Shown here in pieces: positions 36,178-54,186 of a DNA stretch of 64,000 nt. The notes under the pieces were generated by a model, which worked only from the letters and a program-made list of their open reading frames with translations, made no database searches and had not been told where the DNA came from. The stretch spans positions 120,112-184,111 of the IMG/VR virus record IMGVR_UViG_3300037755_000305; one strand, given 5' to 3'. This DNA is from a virus. The number at the start of each line of letters is the position of its first letter. Positions within the stretch are counted from its first letter, which is position 1. The position numbers were made by a program, and so were the translations under genes.

Positions 36178-37410
36178 TTACCCCTTCACGCACAAGACTT
36201 GTTTAAGCGTATGCTTGATTTCCACCAAAGACTCTTGAGCCTTCATCACACTGTCAATAGACTTATACGCACCAGGGGTTTCATCCAAAACTCCAATGTC
36301 TTTTCTACATTCCACGCCCTCGGTAGCAGCAATGTGGTCGTCCAGCGTAAATTGTTTCTTGGCCGCAGAACGACTCATCACTCTCCCAGCACCATGCGAA
36401 CACGAGTCGAAGCTTTCCGGGTTGCCCTTGCCCTCTACAATGAACGACTTAGCGCCCATCGAACCCGGGATGATTCCCATGACACCCTTGCGAGCGCACA
36501 CAGCTCCCTTGCGGGTCAACCACACGTTGTCTCCGTAGTGGTTCTCGCGAGTAGTGTAGTTGTGGTGACAGTTGACGGCAACATCGTGCGTCAATAGCTT
36601 CTTCTGCGGAACTCCGCCCTCACGCTTCAGCGCGTCGAAAACCTGAACCACCATGAGATCACGATTGATGCGAGCAAAGTCCTGCCCCCACTCCATAGCC
36701 TCGATGTAGTCATCGAAATACTGAGTGCCTTCCGGCAAGTACGCCAAGTCACGGTCCGGGAGGTGAATGAAATGCTTCGACATCTCTTCCTTCGCCAAAT
36801 CCGTGAAGTATCGGCCGATAATGTTACCCGGACCACGGCTTCCCGAGTGTAGCATCAGCCACACGCGATCAGCCTCGTCCAAGCAAATCTCGATGAAGTG
36901 ATTCCCGCTGCCCAGCGTACCTAGCTGCAAGGAAGCCGCCTTGTGGAAGATAGACTTGTGCTTCGCCAAAATGTTCTGGTAGCGAGCGTCCAACTTGTTG
37001 GCCCATGCTAGAGCATGCGTCTTCGGAACATCGCCCGAAGCGTATCCACCCTTGTTGTGGGAAGCCCCCTTGACAGCGCCAGTCGGAACAGCGTGCTCGA
37101 TAGCCGAACGCCAGCCCTTCAAGTTTGTCGGAAGGTCAGTGGACTCCATGCCCGTCCGTACGGCGACCATGCCGCAGCCAATATCGACCCCGACCGCAGA
37201 CGGTATAATAGCCCCTTTCGTTGGAATGACTGAGCCTACAGTGGCCCCAAAACCAAAGTGGCAATCAGGCATGACGGCGACGTGCTTGTGGATGAACGGC
37301 AGAGATGCAACATTACGCAACTGTCCCAGAGCGGCTTCTTCGACCGGAACGCCCTTCGTGAATGCCTTGATCGGCACAAGGCCACCCTGATAAACGTCAA
37401 AATCACTCAT
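36178..37410 (-). CDS. rtcB: RNA 2',3'-cyclic phosphate/5'-OH ligase RtcB
   Basis: MPDCH, VGVDIGCGM, LGTLGSGNHFIE, HSGSRG, CHHNY, IIPGSMG, SHGAGR, DETPGAYK. Confidence 0.97.
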   Translation of the reverse strand: MSDFDVYQGGLVPIKAFTKGVPVEEAALGQLRNVASLPFIHKHVAVMPDCHFGFGATVGSVIPTKGAIIPSAVGVDIGCGMVAVRTGMESTDLPTNLKGWRSAIEHAVPTGAVKGASHNKGGYASGDVPKTHALAWANKLDARYQNILAKHKSIFHKAASLQLGTLGSGNHFIEICLDEADRVWLMLHSGSRGPGNIIGRYFTDLAKEEMSKHFIHLPDRDLAYLPEGTQYFDDYIEAMEWGQDFARINRDLMVVQVFDALKREGGVPQKKLLTHDVAVNCHHNYTTRENHYGDNVWLTRKGAVCARKGVMGIIPGSMGAKSFIVEGKGNPESFDSCSHGAGRVMSRSAAKKQFTLDDHIAATEGVECRKDIGVLDETPGAYKSIDSVMKAQESLVEIKHTLKQVLCVKG

Positions 37411-39982: not shown

Positions 39983-40070
39983 TGGCGGAAGATAGAGGAT
40001 TTGAACCTCTGTGGGTTTTACCCCGCATCGCTTTCCAAGCGAGCCCGTTTGTCCTCTCCGGCAATCTTCC
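39983..40070 (-). tRNA. tRNA-Ser(GGA)
   Basis: Cloverleaf, long variable arm, CCA. Confidence 0.93.
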
Positions 40071-40080
40071 TTAGTCCTTA

Positions 40081-40157
40081 TGGATGGGGAACTGGGATTC
40101 GAACCCAGAACCCGCAGATTCAAAGTCTGCTGCTCTAGCCAGTTGAGCTATTCCCCA
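40081..40157 (-). tRNA. tRNA-Gln(TTG)
   Basis: GCAGA-CT-TTG-AA-TCTGC; CCA. Confidence 0.92.
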
Positions 40158-40176
40158 ATATATTTACATTTCTATG

Positions 40177-40263
40177 CGGAAGAAGGAGGATTCGAACCCC
40201 CGCAGGACTCACATCCTGGCCACTGTTTTCGAAACAGGCACAATACCACTCTGTCATTCTTCC
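40177..40263 (-). tRNA. tRNA-Ser(CGA), CCA not encoded
   Basis: Cloverleaf; G73 followed by CAT. Confidence 0.9.
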
Positions 40264-40271
40264 AGGCTATA

Positions 40272-40357
40272 TGGCGGTGGGCAGAGGAATCGAACCCCTA
40301 GACGATTAAATCTACCATAGTGTTCAAAACTACTTTGCCGCCTTGGCGGTGCCCACC
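40272..40357 (-). tRNA. tRNA-Ser(TGA)
   Basis: GTAGT-TT-TGA-AC-ACTAT; long variable arm; CCA. Confidence 0.88.
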
Positions 40358-40776
40358 GATTTACCATTACGAGATTTACGTTCGTATCCTCGTGCTTTCT
40401 TAGCTGCATAGGTGCTACACACCTTACATACCCTATAGCCTCTTGCATCGTACCGAGTATTCAGCTTTGTGAATTTATGTCCGCGAACACAGTGTGTTTT
40501 ATCCTGATTTACCTTGGTTCCGGCTCCAGAATTGCACTTTAGGTGCGAAAACGCTATGTTGTCGATATCCCAAAACAATTCCGCAGAAACATGCAGCCAG
40601 GGCTCCTTATGTTCTAAGCTAAATTCTTCAATAGCTTCAATAACTTCTCCGCATTGATGGCATCTGTCAAGAGATAATTTACGCACAAGGCTAAACATAA
40701 CCAACTTGCGCAATCTGTGTTGTGCTGTGCCGAAGTTCACCCCTAATTGTTCTGACTTGAGTTTATGATTACTCAT
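40330..40776 (-). mobile_element. HNH homing endonuclease within the tRNA array
   Basis: CHQC...SLEHKEPW...NIAFSHLKCN; C-terminal THCVRGH...RVCKVC. Confidence 0.85.
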
Positions 40777-40860
40777 TTTGCTCCAAGCTATCCTTCACAG
40801 TTTTACCTGTGCCCTGGTGTTCGAAACCAGTTTGTACCCTGTACGGTACCTTCCGTATTA

Positions 40861-40951
40861 TGGCGGCGAAGGTGGGTAACGATCCCACTCGGAGGTATTA
40901 GCTCCGGCCTTGGTTTAGCAAACCAGCACAATTCCTATCTGTCACTTCGCC
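40861..40951 (-). tRNA. tRNA-Ser(GCT)
   Basis: Cloverleaf, long variable arm, CCA. Confidence 0.9.
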
Positions 40952-40958
40952 GTATGTA

Positions 40959-41046
40959 TGGTGAGCAGGGTGGGATTCGAACCCACAGTGGGATTTCTCC
41001 TGCGGATTAAAAGTCCGCCGCATTCAGCCAATTTTGCTACCTGCCC
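40959..41046 (-). tRNA. tRNA with Lys(TTT) anticodon and long variable arm
   Basis: GCGGA-CT-TTT-AA-TCCGC; 15-nt variable region; A73; CCA. Confidence 0.85.
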
Positions 41047-41051
41047 AAATA

Positions 41052-41128
41052 TGGTCCGGGTGGCCGGAGTCGAACCGGCTTCCTCATGCTCCCAAAGCAC
41101 GCGCGTGGCCACATTTCGCTACACCCGG
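41052..41128 (-). tRNA. tRNA-Pro(TGG)
   Basis: Cloverleaf, CCA. Confidence 0.92.
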
Positions 41129-41212
41129 GTAAAATCTATTTCCAACTCTCCTGAGTGATTCCGGGAGACCATTCTCCCCCATAGGTCATCAGGTATTCGC
41201 CTTATCTTCTTC

Positions 41213-41239
41213 CTTTCGGACACTCTCCCAATTTCTTTA
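41213..41239 (-). promoter_or_regulatory. sigma28-type promoter (internal to tRNA block)
   Basis: TAAA-N15-TCCGAAAG. Confidence 0.55.
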
Positions 41240-41247
41240 GTCTAAAC

Positions 41248-41515
41248 CCGCGCCAACCCAGCCCCCGCTGGCCTGTTCATCCTGTCCCTGCCAGTTAGTC
41301 GCTGGCTGCGCCCGTTCAGGATTACACAATATGGATGCCACCCTGGGACTCGAACCCAGAACCACCGGTGTCAGAGACCGGTGCTCTACCATTGAGCTAG
41401 ATGGCAATATGTTGTGCGCCGCCCGGCCCCCGCCGAGTCAGTTCTCCTGCCCCTTACCAGTCGACTACATTGTGTCTCTGGACACGCCCGTTCAGGATAA
41501 CGCAGTATGTCTTTC
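41248..41515 (-). repeat. Two related GC-rich structured elements (about 41248-41328 and 41415-41515), unassigned ncRNA
   Basis: Both share ATCCTGAACGGGCG and a GCGGGGGC hairpin, with collinear similarity between them; they flank tRNA-Gln(CTG). Confidence 0.7.
41332..41406 (-). tRNA. tRNA-Gln(CTG)
   Basis: CCGGT-CT-CTG-AC-ACCGG; CCA. Confidence 0.93.
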
Positions 41516-41561
41516 CTTTCTTCGACTGTATAAGTCTATTACTTTAGACCTATTTGCTAAA

Positions 41562-41648
41562 TGGTGAGCAGGGTGGGATTCGAACCCACATTGTCCTTTC
41601 GGACTCTGGTTAAGAGCCAGTTACATAGCCTGATTCTGTCACCTGCCC
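41562..41648 (-). tRNA. tRNA with Lys(CTT) anticodon and long variable arm
   Basis: CTGG-CT-CTT-AA-CCAG; variable stem-loop GTCC-GAAA-GGAC; A73; CCA. Confidence 0.85.
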
Positions 41649-41650
41649 AT

Positions 41651-41726
41651 TGAGTCAGTGTTCTACTCTATTGAACTACCGAAGACTAACGCTCCGGCCG
41701 GGTATCGCAGCCCGGACCTCTGACTA
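41651..41726 (-). ncRNA. Circularly permuted tRNA-like RNA
   Basis: 3' half (GTCAG, T-arm CCGGG/CCCGG, CCGGAGCG), then TTAG linker, then 5' half (TCTTCGG, D-arm GTTC/GAAC, CTGAC). Confidence 0.65.
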
Positions 41727-41731
41727 ATATA

Positions 41732-41808
41732 TGGTCGGGATAGTTGGATTCGAACCAACGGCCTCTCGCCCCCCAGACGAGCGCTCTGCCAAGCTGAGCT
41801 ATACCCCG
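41732..41808 (-). tRNA. tRNA-Pro(GGG)
   Basis: Cloverleaf, CCA. Confidence 0.93.
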
Positions 41809-41835
41809 TTATGCTTCCTTTGCAAGGTACGGGTT

Positions 41836-42243
41836 TTACGCCCGTGCTTTCTGTGCTGCGATTGCCGCCTTTCGGACAACCGGTGTTCCAAACAGATTCG
41901 TCAGCTTTCGCTTGACCGCCATCTCATTTTCGTCTCGGTTAGTATCGTATCCGCCCATATCGAACCGGAAGCTATCCGACAACAAGTAGTCTACGCTGGT
42001 TTCCTCGAGAGACCACTGTTCCTCAAACCCATTGCATGAACAGTGCGAACCATAGTTTTCGTACAGAACTCCATCCTTTCTCAACAAGAACCAGTTACTA
42101 GAGTTGCCCCAGCTACCTGCGCTTTCATAAGTGATAAGAATCTCAAACCCATCAAGCTCTTTCTCTTCGATTTGAAAAGAGCAAACAATATGGTCGCGAA
42201 CCTCTTCTTTCGAGTCTCCAGCCAAGTCTTCCAATGCCAACAT
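41836..42243 (-). CDS. Hypothetical protein
   Basis: GGAGAGG RBS; ends VRKAAIAAQKARA. Confidence 0.65.
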   Translation of the reverse strand: MLALEDLAGDSKEEVRDHIVCSFQIEEKELDGFEILITYESAGSWGNSSNWFLLRKDGVLYENYGSHCSCNGFEEQWSLEETSVDYLLSDSFRFDMGGYDTNRDENEMAVKRKLTNLFGTPVVRKAAIAAQKARA

Positions 42244-42264
42244 GTTTTACCTCTCCAAAATTTA

Positions 42265-42535
42265 CAGACGAGCTATAAGCGGGATTATGTTATCGACAAT
42301 CATTCATCTTGCTCTGGTGTCACCACCAGAATCTTTGCCCGATACCCGAGGACTCCTGACACGATCAATGCCCTCTGCTTTCGGTTGCTGCACCTGCGCT
42401 GTCGCCCGTTTCACCCAGACTTAACTGGCTCGTCACTGTTGCCGTCACTCACCTCACGGTGGTAGGGTGTTACCCTCCAGGCTGTGTCATGCAGTCCCGA
42501 CTTTCCTCTCCTTGGAGCGATTGTCCGCTCGTCTG
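42265..42535 (-). ncRNA. rnpB: Compact RNase P RNA (about 271 nt)
   Basis: P1 CAGACGAGC/GCTCGTCTG; P2 GACAATC/GATTGTC; CR-I GAGGAAAGTCGGGA pairs with CR-V ACATAATCCCGCTTAT (P4 with bulged U); CR-II/III GCAACAG...GGGTGAAACGG; CR-IV AGATGAATGA. Confidence 0.9.
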
Positions 42536-42554
42536 TTTATCCTTACAAATCAAA

Positions 42555-42631
42555 TGGTCTGGGTGGGTGGCTTCGATCCACCGACCTCTCCCTTCCGAGG
42601 GGAGTGCTCTTCCAGACTGAGCTACACCCAG
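42555..42631 (-). tRNA. tRNA-Pro(CGG)
   Basis: CTCCC-CT-CGG-AA-GGGAG; C1-G72, A73, CCA. Confidence 0.92.
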
Positions 42632-42750
42632 TTATAACTATTTGACTCTGCCGCCTGTCGCGGAGTCTCGGCTACCAGGGACAGGGAGTTCAAGTCCCTT
42701 CCTTAGCAGCTTATAACGCCCGGTGTCTGACCTATGTTTGCCTTGAATTG

Positions 42751-42833
42751 TGGCTGGCTAGGTAGGATTCGAACCTACATTGAGTTCCCTCACGGGTTAA
42801 CAGCCCGCTGCATTACCATTATGCTACTAACCA
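42751..42833 (-). tRNA. tRNA-Asn(GTT) with long variable arm
   Basis: GCGGG-CT-GTT-AA-CCCGT; variable stem-loop GAG-GGAA-CTC; G73; CCA. Confidence 0.88.
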
Positions 42834-42853
42834 ATAATTGTCCTCTAAAACGC

Positions 42854-42884
42854 AAAAACCCCGGTTTCCTTTTGGAGACCGGGG
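42854..42884 (-). terminator. Attenuator terminator ahead of tRNA block 1
   Basis: CCCCGGTCTCC-AAAA-GGAAACCGGGG-TTTTT. Confidence 0.85.
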
Positions 42885-42912
42885 CGCAAAATGTTGCTCT
42901 GTCAGTCAGAGC

Positions 42913-42999
42913 TTACAGCACGCCAGTCTCCTGCCCAGGATTACTGGGCTGGTTCGGCTTCGATTGCCGTGAGGATGGTTTGCTGTTGAAAGTCATCAT
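42913..42999 (-). CDS. Leader peptide 1 (MMTFNSKPSSRQSKPNQPSNPGQETGVL)
   Basis: 28-codon ORF ending 29 nt before the terminator; N/S/K/P/Q-rich; its 3' end is complementary to the terminator 5' arm. Confidence 0.8.
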   Translation of the reverse strand: MMTFNSKPSSRQSKPNQPSNPGQETGVL

Positions 43000-43057
43000 T
43001 GTATCCAATATATAAGCACCAGAAAAATTTCGTGATGCGCACAAGCTCTTTAGTGTA

Positions 43058-43084
43058 GTATCGGCTACCTGGACCGAAACTTGA
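43058..43084 (-). promoter_or_regulatory. sigma28-type promoter upstream of leader 1
   Basis: TCAA-N15-GCCGATAC. Confidence 0.75.
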
Positions 43085-43267
43085 GACCTTTTTATCCTTC
43101 TGAAACCAGAAACTCGAATATTTTGTAGCACTTGACGCAAATGTGCAACTTCTTTACTTCTAATCCCTCAGGGGGACAGAACAGAAGAGCGCCCGGCTCT
43201 TCCAGTTCGTCAGAACATTTAGCACAAAACACTGAAATTGCCATACCCGTCTCCAAATTTTCTATGC

Positions 43268-43636
43268 CTACAATTCACCTTCTGTGGCTCCCAAAGAATG
43301 ATCTCTATGCAAGTCCTGCAAATCCTGCAAATCCAGTCCCAGATCCTCTGCTAATTCTGCAACCTTGTCTCTGAGATCCTTCGCCAGGGCTCTGTATCCG
43401 TCTTCTTCGGCGGAACTAGCGTAGGCCAAAATGGCGGGCAGCGCATGGGGATCGTGATTCAAATCCAACACGAAATATTCGCATCCGTAGTGCCTGCCAG
43501 GAGGACCGCCGCGAAGACCTTCGCGTCTGTCTTCTCCGTCGATTCGAGTCACTTTATACTTATCGTACAGGCCCTTCTTTCGATCTGCCATTCTCTTCTC
43601 CATTCTTGCAAACTTATCGTCGTAGCTTTCAAACAC
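43268..43636 (-). CDS. Hypothetical protein
   Basis: GLYDKYKVTR...EYFVLDLNHDPHALPAILAYA. Confidence 0.65.
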   Translation of the reverse strand: MFESYDDKFARMEKRMADRKKGLYDKYKVTRIDGEDRREGLRGGPPGRHYGCEYFVLDLNHDPHALPAILAYASSAEEDGYRALAKDLRDKVAELAEDLGLDLQDLQDLHRDHSLGATEGEL

Positions 43637-44012
43637 GTTGGTCTATCTTTCCAGATACAGAAACCAAAGCATCTACATCTACGTGATTGTTCCAAATAGA
43701 GCACCCCTTGTATAGGAACTGCTCTTGAATTTCGTGAAGTTCGGCCCGATGTACGGCAGCCCAAGCTGTTTGCACAACCTCAGTAGGACACGAATATCTT
43801 GACAAGAACCACTTACGTCCCTTTTGAAGGGCTGGCTCTCCTCCGCTTTCGTTATCCGGCGCCATGAATTGTACTCGGAGAATCACATCGTAGTCATCCG
43901 GTCTATCGGCATCGTAGCCTCGCATCTCCAGATGGAAAAACCAGTCTTTGTAAGTGACTAGATCCAAAATGTCTTGAAGCTCTTTGATGGATTTTTTGTT
44001 GTCCATGTTCAA
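43629..44012 (-). CDS. Hypothetical protein
   Basis: QKGRKWFLSRY...HEIQEQF; coupled. Confidence 0.65.
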   Translation of the reverse strand: MNMDNKKSIKELQDILDLVTYKDWFFHLEMRGYDADRPDDYDVILRVQFMAPDNESGGEPALQKGRKWFLSRYSCPTEVVQTAWAAVHRAELHEIQEQFLYKGCSIWNNHVDVDALVSVSGKIDQRV

Positions 44013-44024
44013 GATCTCTACATT

Positions 44025-44891
44025 CTACAATTTGGTGACTACTTCAATACCTTCGCGAGTCACGATCATTGTGTGTTCAAATTGAGCGGAAAGGCTACCA
44101 TCGCATGTAGTGACTGTCCACCCGTCTCGCTCATCTGTTACCACAAACTTTTCTCCAGCATTTATCATCGGTTCGATGGTAAATGCGGTGTTCAATTGCA
44201 AAGTAGGGAATATACAATCCCCTATAGCCTTCATTCGCATATGTGGAATAGGCGGGTCCTTATGAAAGATTTTGCCAGTTCCATGTCCTGTGTATTGTTC
44301 GACTACACTAAACCCGTGCTCTTCCACAAATGGTTGGATGGCTTCGCCAACCACAGTAATGGGGGCGTTGATACTGCACGCTTCAATGCCTTTCCACATA
44401 GCTTGCTCTGTGACTTCAACAAGCCGCTTAGCGTCATCGCTAATAGTTCCTACAGCAAAGGTACGGCTGGTGTCTCCATGGTATCCACGAAGTTTAGGTG
44501 TCACGTCTACATTTACAATATCTCCCTCCATAAGAGGTCGTAGGCTTGGAATGCCGTGGCATACAACAGCATTAACAGAGATGCAACAATGTCCGGGGAA
44601 CGGAGGAGTACCGTAACCAAGGGGTGCTGATTCTGCCCCGGCTTCCTGCGTGAGTCGGTCCACCAAACCGTCGATTTCAACCGTAGTTATGCCCGGCTCA
44701 ATTACCTTTTCTACCTCATCAAGAATCTGACAAGCTAGTCTTCCGGACGCCCTCATGCCGTCCGCAAAACGCTTCTCAGCATGACGACCGAAATTTCTGT
44801 TATTGGGCTTGGTTTTCTTTCGTTTTTTCTTGCTCAAGCCGGATCTCCTTCTTCCCAACCACAGCGCGCTTTGAATGAAACGGGACCACAC
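44025..44891 (-). CDS. map: Methionine aminopeptidase (type I)
   Basis: CISVNAVVCHGIP, DIVNVDV, YHGDTSRT, GHGTG, TIEPMIN, SAQFEHT. Start uncertain. Confidence 0.95.
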   Translation of the reverse strand: MWSRFIQSALWLGRRRSGLSKKKRKKTKPNNRNFGRHAEKRFADGMRASGRLACQILDEVEKVIEPGITTVEIDGLVDRLTQEAGAESAPLGYGTPPFPGHCCISVNAVVCHGIPSLRPLMEGDIVNVDVTPKLRGYHGDTSRTFAVGTISDDAKRLVEVTEQAMWKGIEACSINAPITVVGEAIQPFVEEHGFSVVEQYTGHGTGKIFHKDPPIPHMRMKAIGDCIFPTLQLNTAFTIEPMINAGEKFVVTDERDGWTVTTCDGSLSAQFEHTMIVTREGIEVVTKL

Positions 44892-45015
44892 GATAGGTCT
44901 TTCCGTTGTGCGTGAACGTCTCGGTCAGCTTGCCATGGCTTCTGACAATAGCCGCCAACGCCTTGGGGTCGTTCAAGATTTCGCGCTGCTTCTTCGAATA
45001 CTTAACCTTAGACAT
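44800..45015 (-). CDS. Hypothetical basic protein
   Basis: GAGG RBS; overlaps the 5' end of map. Confidence 0.4.
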   Translation of the reverse strand: MSKVKYSKKQREILNDPKALAAIVRSHGKLTETFTHNGKTYRVVPFHSKRAVVGKKEIRLEQEKTKENQAQ

Positions 45016-45110
45016 GACACCTCTATATCCATTTTTGCGCCGTTTATGGCGAAAGTCAAGCAAAAGTTCTTGGATTCGCCATGTCTCTAATTTTCATCTG
45101 CCCTGGATTA

Positions 45111-45350
45111 TCACTCAGATAGCAATGCTAGCTTTTGGGCTCGCGTCTTCTGCTTTATTCCATACTCTCGCCGCATGGCCAAAGACTTGCTGCTTAGTTC
45201 CTCTTTGTAGCAAAGCTCAACAGGCAGCCTGCTCTTCGTGTACTTCGCACCATTACCGGCGTTGTGTTTCGCCACCCGGGCATCCACGTCATTCGTGTAC
45301 CCGGTGTATAATGTTCCATCAGAGCACCTTAGGATGTAGACGAACCACAC
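45111..45350 (-). CDS. Small GIY-YIG nuclease (UPF0213/YhbQ-like)
   Basis: FVYILRCSDGTLYTGYTND...HNAGNGAKYT...AMRREYGIK. Confidence 0.9.
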   Translation of the reverse strand: MWFVYILRCSDGTLYTGYTNDVDARVAKHNAGNGAKYTKSRLPVELCYKEELSSKSLAMRREYGIKQKTRAQKLALLSE

Positions 45351-45354
45351 TAAC

Positions 45355-45735
45355 TTAGTCCCACAAGGCAAAGAACCATTCTCTGAACAGGTCCATAGAG
45401 CGTTCAAGTTGTGCATGATCTTCATTGTCCAGCGGATAGCAATCGTCGTCTATCGCCAGCTTAAATCCTTTTAACATCTCTCCGAGAATGTCATCCCATT
45501 CTTCCAATGTCAAAGCTCGCGGAAACCCTGCTTCATTGTGCCCTTCAGGATAAACTTCTGTAGGATGACACGGTGTAGCGTGAGGAGGCATCTCTCTAAG
45601 AGCCTTCAAACGAGGATAGATAAATTTGATTATAGTGTAGTCAAGGCTCCACAATTCAGAATCATCCCATCCTCGGGTTAGACGCTGCCAAAGAAACTTG
45701 ACAGGACTCCAGTATCGCCAAAGCCAGTCAGGCAT
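45355..45735 (-). CDS. Hypothetical protein
   Basis: RGWDDSELWSLDY...FFALWD. Confidence 0.65.
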   Translation of the reverse strand: MPDWLWRYWSPVKFLWQRLTRGWDDSELWSLDYTIIKFIYPRLKALREMPPHATPCHPTEVYPEGHNEAGFPRALTLEEWDDILGEMLKGFKLAIDDDCYPLDNEDHAQLERSMDLFREWFFALWD

Positions 45736-45901
45736 CTAATTTCCTTTCTCGTCAATAGCCAACTTCGGACCTTCAGTCCCCTTGCGATAAGGGAGAACGC
45801 AACGCTTGTGGAAATACAACCCCACATTGAAATCCTTGGCGGTGCTGTGTAGAACAAGCTTCCACCAAATCCGCTTACCGCAACCGTAACAGTGGGGGTC
45901 T

Positions 45902-46237
45902 CTACGCATTGTCCCTCTTTACCGCATCCTCAACAAGCTCAACCCAGTGAGCCCCGCCGTTGTAGTATTGGGTGCGAAAATTGTAACTTCCATCCTCGTT
46001 CTTGATAAGGTCGCACCAATCCTCGTTGGCGTCTTCGGTCTTGAAGTTCTCGACTCGACAGAATCCAAGGCCCTCAATATCGGCGTATTCTTCCGTTTCA
46101 GATGCTAGAGCTTTTTGTGGAGTCCCGTAGCAATTATCGCAATCTACATCCAACCGCTCACACTCTGCCTTGGCCTCCGATTCTGTCAAAGTTACGGGGA
46201 TCAATTTGCCGCTGTCGATTACTGTCTCACTCATCAT
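45902..46237 (-). CDS. Hypothetical protein
   Basis: Coupled acidic ORF. Confidence 0.6.
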   Translation of the reverse strand: MMSETVIDSGKLIPVTLTESEAKAECERLDVDCDNCYGTPQKALASETEEYADIEGLGFCRVENFKTEDANEDWCDLIKNEDGSYNFRTQYYNGGAHWVELVEDAVKRDNA

Positions 46238-46736
46238 CGCCGCCCGGTTCGAAGCTTACGCCCTCGATTCCTTGGGAGGCAAAGAACTCGCTGATCTCGT
46301 CCCCCATTCTCGGAGACAGAGCGTTACCATGCTCCCTGATCTCTTCGAGAGTAAAATTGGAATCGTCGCCCGGGACCACTTCCTCGGTAACATCGGGCTC
46401 GTCTCCGCCATTGTACTCGACACGCAGAATCTTGTATGGTTTACCTGCTTCAATGAAGCCGTAAAAATCACTTCCCCAGTCGTCGCCCTGAACTGTTTCC
46501 GTAAGAGTTTCCACGAAAACACGTCCATCCGAGAACCGGATTCGTCGAGGGTTGAAGACACTATGCAGTCCGTCCCCTTCCTCACGATCTGGGTCTTCCT
46601 CGACCTCGTATGAAAGCCCCTGTTCGGACAGCTTGGTGTCAATCACCTGCCTTAGAAGCTCGTTCGGATCTACCCCTAGAATATCTAGCAGAAGACTCTG
46701 TACATCCTGTCGTCCTGTCTCTTGGTCCCAACCCAT
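46227..46736 (-). CDS. Hypothetical protein
   Basis: GGAG RBS; acidic ORF. Confidence 0.6.
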   Translation of the reverse strand: MGWDQETGRQDVQSLLLDILGVDPNELLRQVIDTKLSEQGLSYEVEEDPDREEGDGLHSVFNPRRIRFSDGRVFVETLTETVQGDDWGSDFYGFIEAGKPYKILRVEYNGGDEPDVTEEVVPGDDSNFTLEEIREHGNALSPRMGDEISEFFASQGIEGVSFEPGGDDE

Positions 46737-47226
46737 GTTTTCTCCTACGTTCCGGTATTCAATTTCACTCTATTTCCATCTTCGTGATGGTGTAGTAGGT
46801 ACCGTAAGGTTTGCCGTTGTAAAAAATTTCTGTCCACACTTCGCTGTCTGTTGCAGACGTGACGGGATGGATGCCCAGAGCGTATTCAGGTGCGTTGTCA
46901 TACTCATAACGCACACTACGGGCACATGCTGAAACTGCCTTGAAGAAATCAGCGTATACGCCCAGATAGTCCGTTTCCGGGGCGTCTTCGAAGAATCTAC
47001 GGACGACAAAAGCATTCACGGAAATGGCTCTCCCACACAATTTCGGCGCTTGACACTCCAGCCTTGAAGGTTGATTACGCCACAAATGTCCAGAAGACAA
47101 AGCAAAAGAAGCCCGTCTACGAGGATGAAACGGCCGGGACGTTCAATTCCCTTCCCGCCGTCTGTCCATTCACACGCCTGGGCGATGAAACATCCGACCG
47201 TTGCGTATACTAGAAAGTAGATCATA

Positions 47227-47448
47227 TCAGTCCTCGTCCTCGTCCCGGTACGGACCCCAGTGTTCATTGATTGCCGCGTCAAGTTCGGGGTCTATGTCTC
47301 GACACTCATCGAGTGTATCGCAATCGAAATCAAGAGCGGTCTGAACCAGCTCATCATAGATCTCACGACGACACTCGTCAGTCTCTACTACACCCTGCAC
47401 AACTTGCGCAACACGCTCTACAAACTCAGATCCTCTTGACCAGCCCAT
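47227..47448 (-). CDS. Hypothetical protein
   Basis: GGAGG RBS. Confidence 0.55.
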   Translation of the reverse strand: MGWSRGSEFVERVAQVVQGVVETDECRREIYDELVQTALDFDCDTLDECRDIDPELDAAINEHWGPYRDEDED

Positions 47449-48020
47449 GTTTCCTCCATAGTGACGCTCCGTACGTCCCTGTGTAACTTATTGATTTCCT
47501 ACCATTTAGTCTCTGTTACCAATCCGCAGATACGGGATTAGAATTCCGGCGGGCCATCTCTGTGGGACAGGTTTGTAAAACCCAAAGCCAATAGATGTGG
47601 AATGCTGTTCACCTGTTTCAGGTCCATTCTAACCGTGCGCGTAGTTGGCGCAAGATTGGACACAAAACCCGCGAAACGAGAGAACCCAACCAGGGCAAAA
47701 AACCCCAAAATAACCAATACGTAGCTGTGGATCTCGATCATCGGACCACCTCCGCCCGCATATACCAATCTGGTACGGTGGTTTCCGTGTTTTGGGAGTT
47801 GAAATCGTCGCAGAAGGATTGAGCAAGCTCCAGAGTCTCGAACTCCCTAACTTCGTCAATCTTGCTGCCCCAGCCTCGCTCACTCTCGATGATGTATACC
47901 TTGACCATGATATTTTCTTTCCTTCGGCAAAGTTATAAGAGAACCTTTAGCCAATTCTGTGTCTCTGTTACCATCCCGCAAACATACCCTTACTAACCAC
48001 TGTGCCATAATGGATTTCCT

Positions 48021-48539
48021 TTAGTCTATGGCATATGGGGGTGGAGAAGGTTTCTGAGATAGATTAGAGTTCTCCCACTCGTCTCCAAGCTGATTCAGCT
48101 TGGTTGTGAAAGTGTTGATGTCTTCATCGAAAGATATGATTGTCTCAGTCGTGCGAGGAATGTAGTCCCCGACAACCATATCTGCGTAGCGCTGTAGGTT
48201 GGCCAGAATTGCTTCTGCGACCTTCAAAGCTCTATTCTCCGTCTTGATTAAAGGGCTGAGCAGTGTGTACTGGGAACCAGAGCCCCGGATCGCTTCATCT
48301 CGAACGATACCAATTTCCCGGAAGCGCCCGTTGATTGGATCGTAATTGAATTCAACTCTGACTTCTTTGTATGGTTGATCTGCTTTTGCGTATGAAATGC
48401 CTCTTTCTGCCACTACAGAACCGACGGCCCTGCACCGAGGACAATAGAAAGTTTCTCCGTGGTTGAGAAGGAATACGCCTATGGCGTAGTCATCGCAATT
48501 CGTATCGCCGCAATAACCTACAGCACGTTTCATCGACAT
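48021..48539 (-). CDS. Zn-binding hypothetical protein
   Basis: AAGGAG RBS; C...C...CPRC; downstream of a sigma28 promoter. Confidence 0.65.
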   Translation of the reverse strand: MSMKRAVGYCGDTNCDDYAIGVFLLNHGETFYCPRCRAVGSVVAERGISYAKADQPYKEVRVEFNYDPINGRFREIGIVRDEAIRGSGSQYTLLSPLIKTENRALKVAEAILANLQRYADMVVGDYIPRTTETIISFDEDINTFTTKLNQLGDEWENSNLSQKPSPPPYAID

Positions 48540-48558
48540 TCAGTTCTCCTTGGATATT

Positions 48559-48585
48559 ATATCGGACGATCCGTGGAGAACTTTA
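48559..48585 (-). promoter_or_regulatory. sigma28-type promoter
   Basis: TAAA-N15-TCCGATAT. Confidence 0.7.
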
Positions 48586-48597
48586 GTGTTTTGCCAC

Positions 48598-48640
48598 AAA
48601 AAACCCGCCAGTTTGAGCATCGTTGAGAGGCTTGGCGGGT
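48598..48640 (-). terminator. Rho-independent terminator closing tRNA block 2
   Basis: ACCCGCCA...TGGCGGGT followed by a T run. Confidence 0.65.
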
Positions 48641-48871
48641 ATTGTTAGATCAGATATATTCTGTAATATCGGTCGCCTGTCGCGAGCGGTTGCACATTAC
48701 TATGCTTCAATAGTGAGAGCTTACTGACCGAGCTACATTGGTTCCGCAACAACCATGGCGGACGTTGTTGTCGGGATTTCTTCTCTCAGGGCGCACACCC
48801 TTTCATATAGGTTAATTTGGGTGGCGAAACTCCCTCCCTTTTAGCCGCCTGTCGCGGACGGAGAGGAAAGA

Positions 48872-48948
48872 TGGTAGCGGAAGAGGGATTCGAACCCCCG
48901 GTCTCAAGGTTATGAGCCTTGCGAGATACCTGACTTCTCCATTCCGCG
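48872..48948 (-). tRNA. tRNA-fMet(CAT)
   Basis: CGCGG 5' end with C1:U72 mismatch; CAT anticodon; CCA. Confidence 0.88.
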
Positions 48949-49369
48949 TCAATCTAATGTATAGATAACCACTTAGTGTGGTTTTTCTGTAGCTCCTTTA
49001 GCAAAGGAAACGAAAACAAAAGGCTCTGGGGTGAGGTTTGAGACCGGTCGGGTTTTATCCGAGTGCTCTGTGTCTATCGAGCACCTAACCGAGGAGTCCA
49101 CTACGTCCCCGCCCACAATGGAGGCTCATCGCCGCCCACCCCAGAGTTTATCGAAGTTCCGTGTCTGCGACGCTAACGTGGCGATAATCGCCGTCGTTTT
49201 CTTTGACGCCCCATACGAAGCGTCGCTTGCCGCCGCCAATCATGATGCGAATCACTTGCTCATCCGTTCCTTTCAGGAACCGGCTGCGCTGTCCGCCCTT
49301 CATGCCTGCATTCTGATTTCTTGTCTTTGCACCTGCCATCGTATTTTCCTTCTTTCCTCGTCCTTTAGT

Positions 49370-49816
49370 CTAGGTTAGAACACACACTACAAAGTTCAGG
49401 CGAATGTCCTTCTCGATCTCCAACAACACCGGAACCACATCCTCTTCCCAATCTAGTCCTCCGAGACCACAGCCGATTCTGGGAATGTAAACTTTGTCCA
49501 AATCTCGATTTAGGGCTTCGTAAGCTGCCGCAGCAAGAGACATTTTGACAGCCTTGAGAGAAGCGTAACACTGTCCGTCTCGACCGTAATCAGATTGAGT
49601 GAAACAATTGGCTACCACCAGTCCGTCCTCGACCTCTACAAACTGAGTATCTCCCAGCCGCATTGATCCTTCTCTGTGGTACATGGCCTTTACTGTGGGC
49701 CATTTCATGTAAATGGCACGGGCCACTCCACTCCCCATCGCGTTTTTGGTGTTAACACCATGAGCGATGAGGGCGGGGGATTGTACTGTCGTGATGTCTT
49801 TCTCAAGATAAAACAT
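49370..49816 (-). CDS. Macrodomain (ADP-ribose processing) protein
   Basis: IAHGVN...MGSGVA...ANCFTQ...IPRIGCGLGGLDW. Confidence 0.9.
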   Translation of the reverse strand: MFYLEKDITTVQSPALIAHGVNTKNAMGSGVARAIYMKWPTVKAMYHREGSMRLGDTQFVEVEDGLVVANCFTQSDYGRDGQCYASLKAVKMSLAAAAYEALNRDLDKVYIPRIGCGLGGLDWEEDVVPVLLEIEKDIRLNFVVCVLT

Positions 49817-49904
49817 TAGAACCTGAGATATTCTCCGCCATCTTCTTCTTCGTCCCAACCCGGAGCGAGTCTGTGTCGCTCTTCGGGCAATTCGTCGTCC
49901 TCGT

Positions 49905-50627
49905 CTAAAGAGAGAGCTTCGGCTTGATCGTTTCCGTCCGCTTGTTCAAGCGGAGCTTCTTTATCTCCTTCTTCGAAAGGGCCTTCTTCTCGATGGGGTA
50001 GTAGTACGTGTACTTCTGGGTATGCCAGTACCCGCTCCAGCCCTGCCAGCGCCTTTCCTTCTCTTCCGACCCGATCTCCACTCGGAACCACGCCCCATTC
50101 AGCTTGTGGTACTCCACAGTGTCCGACTCGCGGTAGTAGTGATAGACTTTCTTCTTCGGCTTGTAGCTCTCGCCTTCGCTCTTGCACAGTATACCTGCCT
50201 CGTTTACATACACGCATCGTCCGTAACAAGAGCCCGGAGAAAACCAGTCCTCGGCACGAAAAGAGGTTTCCCCACTGTGGGGAATACCGCCAACCATCTG
50301 CTTAACGTGATCCTTGATGTGCGCAGCCTGAAGAGAGTTTCCCTTCAAAACTTTGCAGATATCTGACCAAACATCGTTCCAGGGCTCGCCCACCTTAGAG
50401 AAAAGGTACCCTTCCAAAGGTCCGAGCAAATCCGAGAACCTTTTCTCATAACCGTTTACAACGTGCTTCTTCCTCATGGACTCGAACTTCGGGCGCAAGT
50501 CCACGTCCACACCCTTGAAAACTCTCTTCTCTCGGGGCTTGGATGCCCTTTCGTAGGTCTTCCGAGGGCCACCCTTACCACCGGAACGGGGGCGCTCGAT
50601 CACGACCTTGTTCATGTCGTCTCTCAT
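49905..50627 (-). CDS. Hypothetical basic protein
   Basis: AGGAG RBS; long ORF. Confidence 0.65.
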   Translation of the reverse strand: MRDDMNKVVIERPRSGGKGGPRKTYERASKPREKRVFKGVDVDLRPKFESMRKKHVVNGYEKRFSDLLGPLEGYLFSKVGEPWNDVWSDICKVLKGNSLQAAHIKDHVKQMVGGIPHSGETSFRAEDWFSPGSCYGRCVYVNEAGILCKSEGESYKPKKKVYHYYRESDTVEYHKLNGAWFRVEIGSEEKERRWQGWSGYWHTQKYTYYYPIEKKALSKKEIKKLRLNKRTETIKPKLSL

Positions 50628-50737
50628 GACAATTCTCCTGTTTGGTGCGTTAGGCACCTAAATAGTGAACCGCATGATGCTCTCCTTCAATGTTCATTAT
50701 GTCATTCCCTCTGCGTCGTTCTTGGATGCTGTCACCC

Positions 50738-50764
50738 TCTTCGGTCGTTCTAGCGAAAACTTTA
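50738..50764 (-). promoter_or_regulatory. sigma28-type promoter
   Basis: TAAA-N15-ACCGAAGA. Confidence 0.6.
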
Positions 50765-50771
50765 GCAAAAG

Positions 50772-50849
50772 TGGAGCTTACGGAGGGATTCGAACCCACA
50801 GCCTGCTCATTACGAAAGAGCCGCTCTATCCAGTTGGAGCTACGTAAGC
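50772..50849 (-). tRNA. tRNA-Thr(CGT)
   Basis: Cloverleaf, CCA. Confidence 0.88.
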
Positions 50850-51073
50850 AAATTATCTCTCGCAGTATTTTTCACCAGCCCTGCGAGTCCGGCCGCGACG
50901 CCTTTGGGTTCTTTCAGCTAGAACGCCTTCGGCCGCTGAATATGACGCAGTGGACATTCTAGATTGCCCTAAACCATTACCGGAGTCGAACCGGAATTCC
51001 CGGGAACGTACCATACTGGACCTGCGTACTACTTGTAATTCTTACCATAGGAGCCCGCGCCAACGCTGGAATG

Positions 51074-51446
51074 TCAGCTTTGCTCTGCCGCCTCTTCGGC
51101 GCGGACCTGGGCTCGAAGCGCTTCCACTTCCACTTCCAGCTTCGCCAGCCGATAGGCTGCGCTTTGTAAGTTTGTGCCTTCCAAATACACCTTGGTGGTT
51201 TCGGGGAACTTGGGAATAGTCGTGAGAGATTTACAGAACCACAAACAACCTGGTGACTTCGGGAAACTTGGGAATAGTCGTGAGAGCTTCGCAGTCTCTC
51301 AGGCTCACCCAGGTAGCCTTGGGGAAATTGGGAACAGTCGTGAGAGATTCGCAGCCTCCCAGATCCACCATGGTAGCCTGTTTTGCGGCTTCCAATTGTT
51401 CTTTAGAAAGTTCAGTGACGTTAGGGTCGTGCAGTTCGAAAAACAT
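51074..51446 (-). pseudogene. Leucine-rich-repeat protein with frameshift near 51240
   Basis: 20-aa repeats (LxxCxxLTTxPxFP; about 60-bp tandem units) continue in another frame after the TAA at 51231. Confidence 0.7.
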
Positions 51447-51472
51447 TTTAATACTACCTACTTGTGGTTTAG

Positions 51473-51748
51473 TTAGCCTTCATCCGACGTATCCGACGAG
51501 ATGCATGTGTTTCTTCGCTGTTGCCAACACGCTTTAACCCTGTCGTCGCAAGAATCACGCTGTTGAGACAATTGCTCGTTACAATCGCTTCTTTGGTCAC
51601 TCACCTGTTCAAAGCACTGTTGAACTACTCCGTCGCAAGCATTTATCGCCCCGGAAGTTTCCGCCTTGTGGGTCATGAAGGACCCGCCACTGGCTGCCAT
51701 GAGAGCCGTTGCAATAATCGTGCCCATAGTCTTGGCGTCAATCTCCAT
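51473..51748 (-). CDS. Membrane-anchored Cys-rich coiled-coil protein
   Basis: N-terminal hydrophobic segment; C-x(6-10) repeats. Confidence 0.55.
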   Translation of the reverse strand: MEIDAKTMGTIIATALMAASGGSFMTHKAETSGAINACDGVVQQCFEQVSDQRSDCNEQLSQQRDSCDDRVKACWQQRRNTCISSDTSDEG

Positions 51749-51767
51749 TTCTTTCTCCCGAACTATG

Positions 51768-51842
51768 TGGAGCTGCCGGTGGGGATCGAACCCACGATCT
51801 CCGCCTTACCGGGGCGGTGCTTTACCACTAAGCCACGACAGC
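51768..51842 (-). tRNA. tRNA-Thr(GGT)
   Basis: Cloverleaf; atypical C33. Confidence 0.88.
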
Positions 51843-51857
51843 CATAACAGGGCAAAT

Positions 51858-52199
51858 TTACTGTCCCTGACACAAATTTTTGAAATTCTCTAAATCGGTA
51901 GCAGAGGATTCAATCCACCGCCCAGATTCAATAACTTCTCCAGAAGAATCTCTTATTACGCACCGAGCCATAATTGTAGAACCAGGAATCACTAAAAGTT
52001 TTGTACAAAAATCTCCGTGTCCTGGATAAAAACTATGTTCTTCTCCGTCTAAACTGGTCCATAAATACTCTATTTCAGAACATTTTTCATCAACGGTTAA
52101 AGGTTGATAAACATTAAAAGGATACTCTGGGACAGGTTCTACTCCTGTCCCAGAGCAGCCTATAATTGTTACAAAAACAGATAGTAGTAGATTACGCAT
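51858..52199 (-). CDS. Putative lipoprotein
   Basis: Signal peptide with IIG-C. Confidence 0.6.
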   Translation of the reverse strand: MRNLLLSVFVTIIGCSGTGVEPVPEYPFNVYQPLTVDEKCSEIEYLWTSLDGEEHSFYPGHGDFCTKLLVIPGSTIMARCVIRDSSGEVIESGRWIESSATDLENFKNLCQGQ

Positions 52200-52209
52200 C
52201 TATTACTGA

Positions 52210-52623
52210 TTACGGCTTTAGAAGAATGGGTTGACCCGGAGCCATGTCAGATGGGAAAATAATCTGAACATTGCTAGTTTCGGAAACCAATCCATCCAAT
52301 GTACACGAAGCAGCACCATTACCAACACCATCTCGTGGAACGTTGTAAGAATGGAAGGTGCCTGGGGCTCCTGTTAACTCTTCACGTCCAATTTCTTCTC
52401 CGTCACTGTTTGTGAATACTACAGAACAGGATAGAATCTTTACGTCTGGAATAGCCACACCGTTACTGTCAGATACCGGAAAACAGATTGCACCAGAACC
52501 TTCTGAAAGATCAAGAAGCTGTTGTGGGGTAACCCCATCACATTCCGTATCCAAAGCGCTAGCCGATGCAGCTAGTAAACAAATAAAAAGAGAGAAAAGA
52601 CCAATCTGACCAAGCTTATTCAT
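52210..52623 (-). CDS. Secreted beta-rich protein
   Basis: Signal peptide; AGGAG RBS. Confidence 0.6.
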   Translation of the reverse strand: MNKLGQIGLFSLFICLLAASASALDTECDGVTPQQLLDLSEGSGAICFPVSDSNGVAIPDVKILSCSVVFTNSDGEEIGREELTGAPGTFHSYNVPRDGVGNGAASCTLDGLVSETSNVQIIFPSDMAPGQPILLKP

Positions 52624-52653
52624 TCTGTACTCCTGTATTCCTGTTGTTGAATT

Positions 52654-52728
52654 TGGAGCGGAAGAAGGGGTTCGAACCCTCGGCCTCAACGTTGGCAACG
52701 TCGCGCTCTACCACTGAGCTACATCCGC
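52654..52728 (-). tRNA. tRNA-Gly(GCC)
   Basis: Cloverleaf, U73, CCA. Confidence 0.93.
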
Positions 52729-52819
52729 AAATCTTAAGGAAGTCCGCAAGATTGATAAGCTGTTTTCCACTTACCCCGACACTTGCGGACCATCAAGCTG
52801 CGCATCGAAACCGCCTGCT

Positions 52820-53107
52820 CTATCCTTCGTATGTTCTTTCCCAATCCTTTTTGGAGATCCCGTTAGGGTGCTCTCCTGTCTCTTTTATCGCCTCCCTGAT
52901 GGCGTATTCGTTGCAGGCTTCCAGCATCTCTGCTGTAGGTTGAACACTGTTCTTTTCCAGACAGTCCATGAATTCGGCTGCTGATTCTCCAGCCAGCTTC
53001 AAGCTGCCGTCTTCCTGAACCCATTCGTGCGGGACTGCTGTTCCCACTCCCATAAGAACTTTCTTCCACCACGGGGCTGAAAGAATTTCGGCTGCTCTAG
53101 AAGACAT
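52820..53107 (-). CDS. Hypothetical protein
   Basis: GGAGG RBS. Confidence 0.55.
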   Translation of the reverse strand: MSSRAAEILSAPWWKKVLMGVGTAVPHEWVQEDGSLKLAGESAAEFMDCLEKNSVQPTAEMLEACNEYAIREAIKETGEHPNGISKKDWERTYEG

Positions 53108-53125
53108 GTTGACCTCCGGCATATG

Positions 53126-53201
53126 TGGTACGGGTGGAGGGATTCGAACCCCCGGCCACCTCCGTGTAAAGGAGGCACTCTAGCCACTGAGTTACACCCG
53201 T
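53126..53201 (-). tRNA. tRNA-Val(TAC)
   Basis: Cloverleaf, CCA. Confidence 0.93.
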
Positions 53202-53207
53202 ATAATT

Positions 53208-53537
53208 CTACTTTAGTGCGCCTGGGACCGTCCATACGTCTGCGGGTGGATGCCCTTCAGGATATAGCCGAACCTTCACAATGTTCTCGTCTCCGCTCAA
53301 AATTTCGGCTCGCATATCACCCTTCATTGGGGCGCACCCCTTTTCAGTCGTGTAGAAGTATAGGATAAACTCATCCTGCTCCACAAGGGCTCGCACGAAA
53401 TTGATGAAAGTCTTTGGGCCACCTTCAGCTAGGCATGCAGGCCAACCCCTTTTTGTCGTCTTTGCTTCTCCTGCGCTGGCAACTCCTGCCAGTACCAACA
53501 CCATGATCGCGATTGCGATCGTAACCAGATTCTTCAT
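53208..53537 (-). CDS. Secreted hypothetical protein
   Basis: Signal peptide; GGGGAG RBS. Confidence 0.6.
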   Translation of the reverse strand: MKNLVTIAIAIMVLVLAGVASAGEAKTTKRGWPACLAEGGPKTFINFVRALVEQDEFILYFYTTEKGCAPMKGDMRAEILSGDENIVKVRLYPEGHPPADVWTVPGALK

Positions 53538-53573
53538 TGTGATCTCCCCGAGGGGAGGATTTGTTGTTCTCCC

Positions 53574-53981: not shown

Positions 53982-53985
53982 AAAA

Positions 53986-54063
53986 TGGTAGTCCTGGCGG
54001 GATTTGAACCCGCGACCTCCCGCTTATAAGACGGATGCTCTAACCAGACTGAGCTACAGGACC
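53986..54063 (-). tRNA. tRNA-Ile(TAT)
   Basis: TCCGT-CT-TAT-AA-GCGGG; A73; CCA. Confidence 0.9.
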
Positions 54064-54111
54064 AAAAAAATTTGATCCCGATATGAGATAGTCCATCACT
54101 TCGTCTCCAAA

Positions 54112-54186
54112 TGGTACTCCCGAACGGTTTCGATCCGTCTTCTCCAGCTTGAAAGGCTGGGGTCCTAGCCATTAGACGACGGGAGC
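54112..54186 (-). tRNA. tRNA-Glu(TTC)
   Basis: Cloverleaf, CCA. Confidence 0.9.

Follow-up and report, generated by a model that had tools for sequence, protein, structure and literature searches.

A class A RNase P RNA without P13 and P14 is encoded within the tRNA array of a phage

The window analyzed here, a stretch of 64,000 nucleotides covering positions 120,112 to 184,111 of the IMG/VR virus record IMGVR_UViG_3300037755_000305, is part of a phage genome. Its genes include those for a terminase large subunit (phrog_17415, 6e-143) and a portal protein (phrog_16240, 1e-116), as well as for a virion protein and a head-tail connector; an intein that contains a LAGLIDADG endonuclease domain interrupts the portal gene (1124 aa; window 6731-10105, minus strand). 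CheckV estimates the 184,111-bp contig to be about 69% complete, which puts the genome at about 260-270 kb, and the contig of the closest relative measures 266,640 bp. The nearest cultured phages as judged by the terminase are jumbo myoviruses of Proteobacteria (Phage NCTB, PaBG, Y3 and phiRSL1), at 30-34% identity. The genes and features that bear on the locus are the following, where designations such as L222 refer to loci on other contigs:

24408..28880, plus strand: 1490-aa CCA-adding enzyme fused to HD and Fic domains (tRNA 3' end repair; domain searches)
36178..37410, minus strand: RtcB RNA ligase (tRNA repair; PF01139, 3e-124)
39983..63738, minus strand: array of 29 tRNA genes with small ORFs interspersed, comprising all tRNA genes of the record
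41732..41808, minus strand: tRNA-Pro(GGG), the next tRNA downstream of the RNase P RNA
41836..42243, minus strand: ORF of 135 aa, acidic (pI 4.6), with weak PHROG matches, between the RNase P RNA and tRNA-Pro(GGG)
42260..42536, minus strand: class A RNase P RNA gene (RF00010, 147.8 bits, 277 nt)
42555..42631, minus strand: tRNA-Pro(CGG), CCA encoded, ending 18 nt upstream of the RNase P RNA
42751..42833, minus strand: tRNA-Asn(GUU), first tRNA of the block
42847..42885, minus strand: terminator-like hairpin (8-bp G+C-rich stem) and U-run upstream of tRNA-Asn (z -2.8; conserved in L222 and L232)
42913..42999, minus strand: 28-codon leader ORF MMTFNSKPSSRQSKPNQPSNPGQETGVL, in which 17/28 residues are Asn, Pro, Lys, Gln or Ser

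A scan of the window against Rfam (cmscan) returned a full-length match to RNaseP_bact_a (RF00010) at 42536..42260 on the minus strand, which scored 147.8 bits (E 1.4e-45) compared to a gathering score of 100 bits and spanned model positions 1-367. The first-pass annotation, made from the letters alone, had proposed a phage-encoded RNase P RNA at this site and had named an Infernal search with this model beforehand as the check. The family match, the phage nature of the record and the selection on the fold described below bear the proposal out, while catalysis, expression and partnership with the protein subunit RnpA are inferred. The placement given there, 42265-42535 or about 271 nt with no strand named, was essentially right and is here refined to 42260-42536 on the minus strand, with a match length of 277 nt, of which 42264-42536 (273 nt) extend from P1 to P1. 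This was the sole high-ranking non-tRNA Rfam match in the window scan, and in the whole 184,111-bp record an RNase P RNA was matched at the same place only.

The structure of the RNA was mapped from the Rfam alignment, and each helix was checked by direct pairing; RNA position 1 corresponds to window position 42536. All 81 mapped pairs are standard pairs in the window copy. Conservation refers to the alignment of 18 sequences introduced below.

RNA 1-10 / 264-273 (window 42527..42536 with 42264-42273), minus strand: P1, 10/10 bp; 7/10 pairs change on both sides among relatives
RNA 12-18 / 236-242 (42519..42525 with 42295-42301), minus strand: P2, 7/7 bp; 100% of cells paired, 4 pairs covary
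RNA 20-22 / 27-29 (42508..42517), minus strand: P3, 3-bp hairpin with 4-nt loop; 14 model positions deleted
RNA 34-36 and 38-42 / 253-260 (42495-42503 with 42277-42284), minus strand: P4, 3+5 bp, bulged U37 at 42500
42491..42508, minus strand: CR-I with the 5' strands of P4 and P5; invariant in 18 sequences
RNA 43-46 / 146-149, minus strand: P5
RNA 48-52 / 176-180, minus strand: P6 pseudoknot, UGACA at 42485..42489 with UGUCA at 42357-42361 in the P17 loop; 5/5 bp
42392..42482, minus strand: specificity domain with P7, P8, P9, P10/P11 and a stub P12, without P13/P14 (Rfam alignment and pairing)
RNA 55-59 / 141-145, minus strand: P7
RNA 61-64 / 70-73, minus strand: P8
RNA 75-79 / 84-89, minus strand: P9 with GNRA loop
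RNA 90-96 / 132-140, minus strand: P10/P11
42404..42440, minus strand: J11/12, P12 and J12/13 (CR-II, CR-III), matching the Rfam consensus ACAG...GGGUGAAA; almost every position invariant in 18 sequences
RNA 109-112 / 119-122, minus strand: P12, 4-bp stub
42339..42384, minus strand: P15-P16-P17 arm with L15 GGU (42344-42346); C189-U193 invariant
RNA 153-156 / 195-198, minus strand: P15; 4/4 pairs covary
RNA 162-167 / 184-189, minus strand: P16, 6 bp
RNA 173-174 / 181-182, minus strand: P17, 2 bp
RNA 206-213 / 218-225 (42312..42331), minus strand: P18, 8/8 bp with GNRA loop; 7/8 pairs covary
42276..42290, minus strand: CR-V ACAUAAUCCCGCUUA with the P4 3' strand (42277-42284); U at 42287

Several structural details had already been recognized by eye. 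The five conserved regions CR-I to CR-V claimed there all aligned to the Rfam consensus, and the three helices named (P1, P2 and P4) paired directly over their whole length, P4 around its bulged U. The compensatory changes in P4 were likewise recovered: its strands read AAG(U)CGGGA / UCCCGCUU compared to GUCCGGg / CCCGGCUU in the Rfam consensus, and two pairs are altered on both sides, from C-G to G-C and from G-C to A-U. The description of the RNA as 'minimal' could be kept only in part. P13 and P14 are indeed lost, as the 43-position model block for these helices aligned to 0 nt and merely 2 nt lie between GGGUGAAA and the 3' strand of P11, and the Rfam alignment lacks 14 positions of P3 and also most of P12. 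Nevertheless, the term is too strong because both functional domains are kept, including the core that reads the tRNA elbow, and only P13/P14 are shed and P3, P12 and P17 trimmed; far smaller phage versions exist.

Membership in class A was supported by almost every feature of that class. The gathering score was passed over the whole model, and CR-I to CR-V are all present and nearly invariant in 18 sequences, with a single deviation, in that the window copy carries U instead of G at one CR-V position. Also present are the long-range P4 with bulged U37 (3+5 bp), the P6 pseudoknot (5/5 bp, 5/5 covarying), a 6-bp P16, an invariant L15 GGU and the core of the specificity domain, consisting of the P7-P11 cruciform, J11/12 and J12/13. 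Only P13/P14 are missing, helices which are typical of the class but not universal. Two other assignments were ruled out. Class B RNAs (RF00011) possess P5.1, P10.1 and P15.1 and lack P6, P16 and P17, all three of which are present here, and class A was the best-scoring family of the clan. A miniature form without specificity domain would have a short linker, about 190-240 nt and a score below the Rfam cut-off, while the window RNA keeps the domain core, has 277 nt and scores above it. The window RNA is a class A RNase P RNA that lacks P13/P14, has a trimmed P3, P12 and P17 and retains both functional domains.

Like the class A RNA (RF00010) of E. coli, M1 RNA or rnpB, the window RNA has CR-I to CR-V, P4 with its bulged U, P6 and P15-P17 with the GGU loop, and it shares with bacterial class A RNAs the GNRA loops L9 and L18 and the P7-P12 cruciform core. 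It differs from them in that it is located in a phage tRNA array, has 277 nt as opposed to the 367-position consensus, has no rnpA alongside, lacks P13/P14 and carries a P3 of 3 bp, a P12 of 4 bp and a P17 of 2 bp. Short RNase P RNAs of about 260-280 nt are known as the engineered Min 1 and Micro P and as the 276-nt RNA of Mycoplasma fermentans, all with variable helices removed and the core kept. The window RNA is similar in size to these and follows the same trimming logic, but represents a natural lineage under selection; the M. fermentans RNA belongs to class B, in contrast to the class A window RNA with its P6, P16 and P17. The type T RNase P RNA of Pyrobaculum is also naturally short, but it lacks the specificity domain and belongs to an archaeal lineage with archaeal proteins, whereas the window RNA is of bacterial class A with an intact specificity-domain core. 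Among bacteria of the candidate phyla radiation, an RNase P RNA without P12, P13, P14 and P18 has been described, and such losses, P12 excepted, are not unusual (PMC8172020); the loss of P13/P14 as such is already known. These RNAs are likewise natural, class-A-like and devoid of peripheral helices, but they are the sole chromosomal rnpB of their cells, while the window RNA is viral, keeps P12 and P18 and passes the Rfam cut-off without a lowered threshold.

Relatives of the RNA were collected by two routes. Among 80 phage loci anchored on RtcB, an RNase P RNA occurred within 10 kb in only two, those of the two closest phages (82% and 77% RtcB identity; contigs of 266,640 and 210,369 bp), and phage tRNA arrays therefore do not generally need one. 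In both, the RNA is located upstream of RtcB in a tRNA array, passes the Rfam cut-off (149.4 and 155.4 bits) and lacks P13/P14, and one has a long P12. A search of viral and metagenome contigs with a clade-specific 16-mer gave about 29 genuine candidates, counting repeats of known loci; about 100 of the 129 loci carrying the 16-mer in the pooled collections had no CR-V and were treated as chance. The 16-mer of the CR-V variant, AACATAATCCCGCTTA, was found at 6 viral loci, none of which had an RNase P RNA, and these were regarded as chance matches as well. The final alignment contained 18 distinct sequences, namely the window RNA and 17 relatives on viral and metagenome contigs that are 63-95% identical to it.

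In this alignment, 95.1% of the cells of the mapped structure were paired, compared to 36-45% when the partners were slid by 1-3 columns. Changes on both sides occurred at 45/81 pairs (169 cells), and none of 500 shuffles reached the observed pairing or covariation on any measure. The P6 pseudoknot was 97.8% paired, with covariation at 5/5 pairs, whereas P4 and P5 were invariant, as is expected of the catalytic core. In a wider set of 56 distinct viral and metagenome candidates, the variable P4 pairs were standard in 56/56 and 55/56 and showed three pair types each. RNAalifold, which is independent of our mapping, recovered P2, P3, P5, P7, P8, P9, P12, P15, P16 and P18; compensatory changes were seen in 30 of the 60 pairs that it predicted. 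Among the relatives, loops L9 and L18 vary only within GNRA, L15 GGU, J5/15, CR-II and CR-III are invariant, and all 17 lack P13/P14. This pattern shows that the fold is under selection. One deviation concerns the window copy alone: position 250 in CR-V (window 42287, ACAUAA) is U, compared to G in 17/18 clade members and in the Rfam consensus. A polymorphism, an error in the assembly and a change that weakens the RNA are all possible explanations.

The RNA is surrounded by genes of the tRNA array. Along the minus strand, the 28-codon ORF is followed by the hairpin and U-run, tRNA-Asn, tRNA-Pro(CGG), a spacer of 18 nt, the RNase P RNA, the 135-aa ORF and tRNA-Pro(GGG). The RNA had been described as lying between two Pro tRNAs downstream of 'attenuator 1'. 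The two tRNAs are correctly named, but the 135-aa ORF also intervenes before the second one; the strong hairpin and U-run are present at 42847-42885, with the attenuator function putative. The residues enriched in the leader ORF (Asn, Pro, Lys, Gln and Ser) are the amino acids of the tRNAs that follow, and leader-like peptides occur also in L232 and L245. In a promoter and terminator consensus scan, whose counts did not exceed those of shuffles and which failed to detect the hairpin at 42847-42885, long-looped but evident from folding, no terminator-like site was found on the minus strand between the RNase P RNA and the neighboring tRNAs. As none was found next to the RNA, it could plausibly share a transcript with the tRNAs, although this is inferred from sequence alone.

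At least 14 viral and metagenome assemblies, independent of one another, share this arrangement of the RNA in its tRNA context. A tRNA-Pro is located 19-42 nt upstream of the RNA also in L113, L218, L222, L232, L245, L260 and L309. On the other side, the next tRNA begins 3 nt past the aligned RNA end in L219, L226, L243, L245 and L309, 7-11 nt past it in L203, L209 and L235 and 20 nt past it in L222, so that in these relatives cleavage by RNase P would make the 3' end of the ribozyme. Within the window, seven spacers between tRNAs measure at most 25 nt. As the array reaches the end of the contig and six amino acids are without a tRNA, it probably continues beyond. Of the 29 tRNA genes, 28 encode the CCA end, in keeping with the GGU loop that the RNA has retained. 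The 1490-aa protein, whose CCA-adding enzyme and HD domain are N-terminal and whose Fic domain lies near residue 930, is present even though nearly all tRNA genes encode this end. Together, RtcB and the CCA-adding enzyme indicate an investment in tRNA upkeep.

We consider it likely that the RNA is an active catalytic subunit of RNase P that serves the phage pre-tRNAs, probably together with host RnpA. This reading rests on the observed homology, on an architecture that is intact, on a fold under selection, on a place in the array that relatives share and on the lack of rnpA; transcription of the RNA, its release, catalysis and partnership with RnpA are inferred. The RNA would be transcribed from the minus strand together with the phage tRNAs, 18 nt behind tRNA-Pro(CGG), and would be freed by processing of the flanking tRNAs; in several relatives, RNase P cleavage of the next tRNA may generate its 3' end. 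The compact class A fold is predicted to be held by P4, P6 and the GNRA contacts of L9 and L18. In bacterial RNase P, the J11/12-J12/13 module docks the tRNA elbow and the GGU loop of L15 pairs with the 3' CCA of the tRNA. The retained module could read the elbow in the same manner, and L15 GGU might pair with the CCA ends that the phage tRNA genes encode. The ribozyme, assembled with host RnpA, would then cut the 5' leaders of the phage tRNAs and thereby also separate the tightly spaced tRNAs of the array; in E. coli, the separation of polycistronic tRNAs has been described as the essential function of RNase P (PMC7049720). U250 could weaken the window copy, and the loss of P13/P14 together with the stub P3 and P12 may lower stability.

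With respect to the protein partner, six-frame searches of the record and four relatives, including ones about 89% and 94% complete, gave no rnpA (PF00825) at E <= 1, whereas the control search matched in 10 bacterial genomes. A search for this gene had been suggested along with the idea that the phage borrows host RnpA, and its outcome fits that idea, the partnership itself being an inference. CR-IV and CR-V form the RnpA-binding surface in bacterial holoenzymes. Host RnpA is most likely the partner, because the phage has no rnpA of its own and the RnpA-binding regions are conserved, and it is the most economical reading, with the host unidentified. The adjoining 135-aa ORF was rejected as an RnpA-like cofactor: its product is acidic (pI 4.6) and belongs to no Pfam family, and in L219, L222, L226, L243, L245 and L309 a tRNA 3-20 nt past the RNA leaves no space for the ORF.

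An active ribozyme that does without host RnpA, either alone in the cell or with an unrecognized phage protein, appears unlikely, but it is the alternative that fares best. It would agree with the lack of rnpA in the phage and in near-complete relatives and with a P3 reduced to 3 bp. A protein partner could sit in the missing part, since the record is about 69% complete and about 31% of the genome is unassembled, or among the many small array ORFs of unknown function. Speaking against it, CR-IV and CR-V have been conserved, and trimmed bacterial RNase P RNAs need more, not less, salt to act without protein. The adjoining 135-aa ORF is the acidic one, for which several relatives have no room.

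Even less support was found for an RNA acting as a decoy or regulator, which would soak up host RnpA or pre-tRNAs and so redirect or shut down tRNA maturation in the host. The U at the near-universal G of CR-V could impair catalysis and leave binding intact, but the G is kept in the 17 relatives. P4 with its bulged U, J5/15, L15 GGU, CR-IV and CR-V are invariant or nearly so, which exceeds what a decoy needs, and the 29 tRNAs of the phage themselves require 5' processing.

We also regard it as improbable, and slightly more so, that the RNA is a decaying passenger, that is, a captured fragment of a host rnpB that lies in the tRNA array without present function. The RNA is shorter than bacterial rnpB, and most RtcB-bearing phage loci have none. 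However, it is the best-conserved element of its neighborhood: it is 88% and 95% identical to its counterparts in L113 and L114, while the RtcB coding sequence reaches 77% and 70% and the flanking regions 65-76%. Covariation is strong with every helix intact, and whole peripheral helices have been cleanly deleted, which is not what random loss would produce. In addition, among 185,579 species genomes a single full-size bacterial rnpB was found to carry the 19-nt CR-I/P5 signature of the clade, which argues against a recent capture, and no bacterial donor can be named. This single true bacterial rnpB (L327:213-595, minus strand; Deltaproteobacteria MAG JAJCZM010000044.1) comprises 383 nt, scores 283.7 bits and has the P4 variant GUCGGGA / UCCCGC, so that the variant is not phage-specific. 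A bacterial rnpB misjoined to the phage contig by assembly or contamination is hardly conceivable: some full-size bacterial-like rnpB copies do occur on uncurated 'Bacteriophage sp.' and draft phage records, but the same RNA in the same tRNA context is found in those at least 14 independent assemblies, phage tRNAs and ORFs lie on both flanks, and the signature search found the approximately 277-nt form in no cellular genome among the 185,579 species genomes.

RNase P RNA is regarded as a cellular housekeeping ribozyme. Our literature search found no published report of a virus-encoded RNase P RNA, and papers on tRNA array units made no mention of one. The RNA thus belongs to a known family with a known fold, but we could find no precedent for its presence in a virus, for its conserved arrangement within a tRNA array or for its trimmed architecture. 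No cultured phage with such an RNA was identified: when the window RNA, a bacterial rnpB and two further phage RNAs served as blastn queries, all matches were either to tRNAs or to full-size copies of bacterial type on uncurated records.

Within the viral collection, a scan for CR-I returned more than 111 loci, many of which have CR-V at the right distance, and the distances between the two fall into classes of about 120-180, 200-240 and 260-300 nt. Four further reduced viral RNAs of 269-322 nt score above the Rfam cut-off, all within tRNA arrays, while the shortest forms score below it. Candidate miniature RNAs were observed on the viral contigs L005, L019, L033, L058, L075, L021, L096, L043, L067, L035 and L069, with CR-I and CR-V 136-213 nt apart in dense tRNA arrays and scores below the cut-off. 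A related case is found in a cultured bacterium, Achromobacter anxifer LMG 26857 (NZ_CAHLAR010000005.1; L330:6076-6299, plus strand), where a 224-nt RNase P-like RNA of 82.7 bits without specificity domain and P18 lies within an array of at least 30 tRNA genes; it provides a cultivable system for such RNAs. The miniature forms (L005, L019, L033, L058, L075 and L330) resemble the window RNA in their location in tRNA arrays and in the core of CR-I, CR-V and P4. They differ from it in having lost most of the specificity domain and in scoring below the Rfam cut-off, L330 included. The window clade is the least-reduced form of phage RNase P RNA, the one that retains the specificity domain.

Taken more broadly, we lean only slightly toward the view that phage RNase P RNAs are widespread, undescribed viral ribozymes forming a trimming series from full size down to about 190-220 nt, with the window clade representing a step where P13/P14 alone have been lost and the tRNA-elbow reader persists, and that they are active in infected cells as hybrid enzymes with host RnpA and replace the host catalytic subunit to mature the phage's own tRNAs. 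If this is true, the catalytic subunit of RNase P joins the translation-related parts carried by large phages, and the question arises why the host enzyme is insufficient; candidate reasons are an overload of tRNAs, host shut-off or a defense aimed at tRNA maturation. The phage lineages also offer natural, evolution-tested answers as to which parts of an RNase P RNA are dispensable. In the window clade these are P13/P14 and most of P3 and P12, with the fold remaining under strong selection, and smaller phage forms lose more. Genome annotation and checks of contamination or completeness in which RNase P RNA serves as a cellular marker should allow for copies on phage contigs.

Further elements were noted in and around the array. 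The tRNA-Lys genes (87-92 nt) and tRNA-Asn genes (82-87 nt) are unusually long (window 40959-41046, 41562-41648 and 42751-42833, minus strand), which recurs in L113, L222, L232 and L245, and two additional tRNA-like Rfam calls at 39794-39860 and 62882-62949 (minus strand; 55.2 and 41.5 bits) were not made by ARAGORN. An abiF RNA motif (RF03085, 59.8 bits) is located at 48603-48639 on the minus strand, upstream of a 172-aa ORF (48021-48539) without Pfam match. Other ORFs in or beside the array, all on the minus strand, encode an HNH endonuclease (40330-40776), an M24 metallopeptidase resembling methionine aminopeptidase (44025-44891), a Macro domain protein (49370-49858) and a calcineurin-like phosphoesterase (38595-39452). 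No tmRNA scored above the cut-off in the record of the window; one with the tag GEDYAIAA is present at L245:8159-8517 (minus strand) on contig SDBT01000019.1, in an array of 34 tRNAs that also holds an RNase P RNA.
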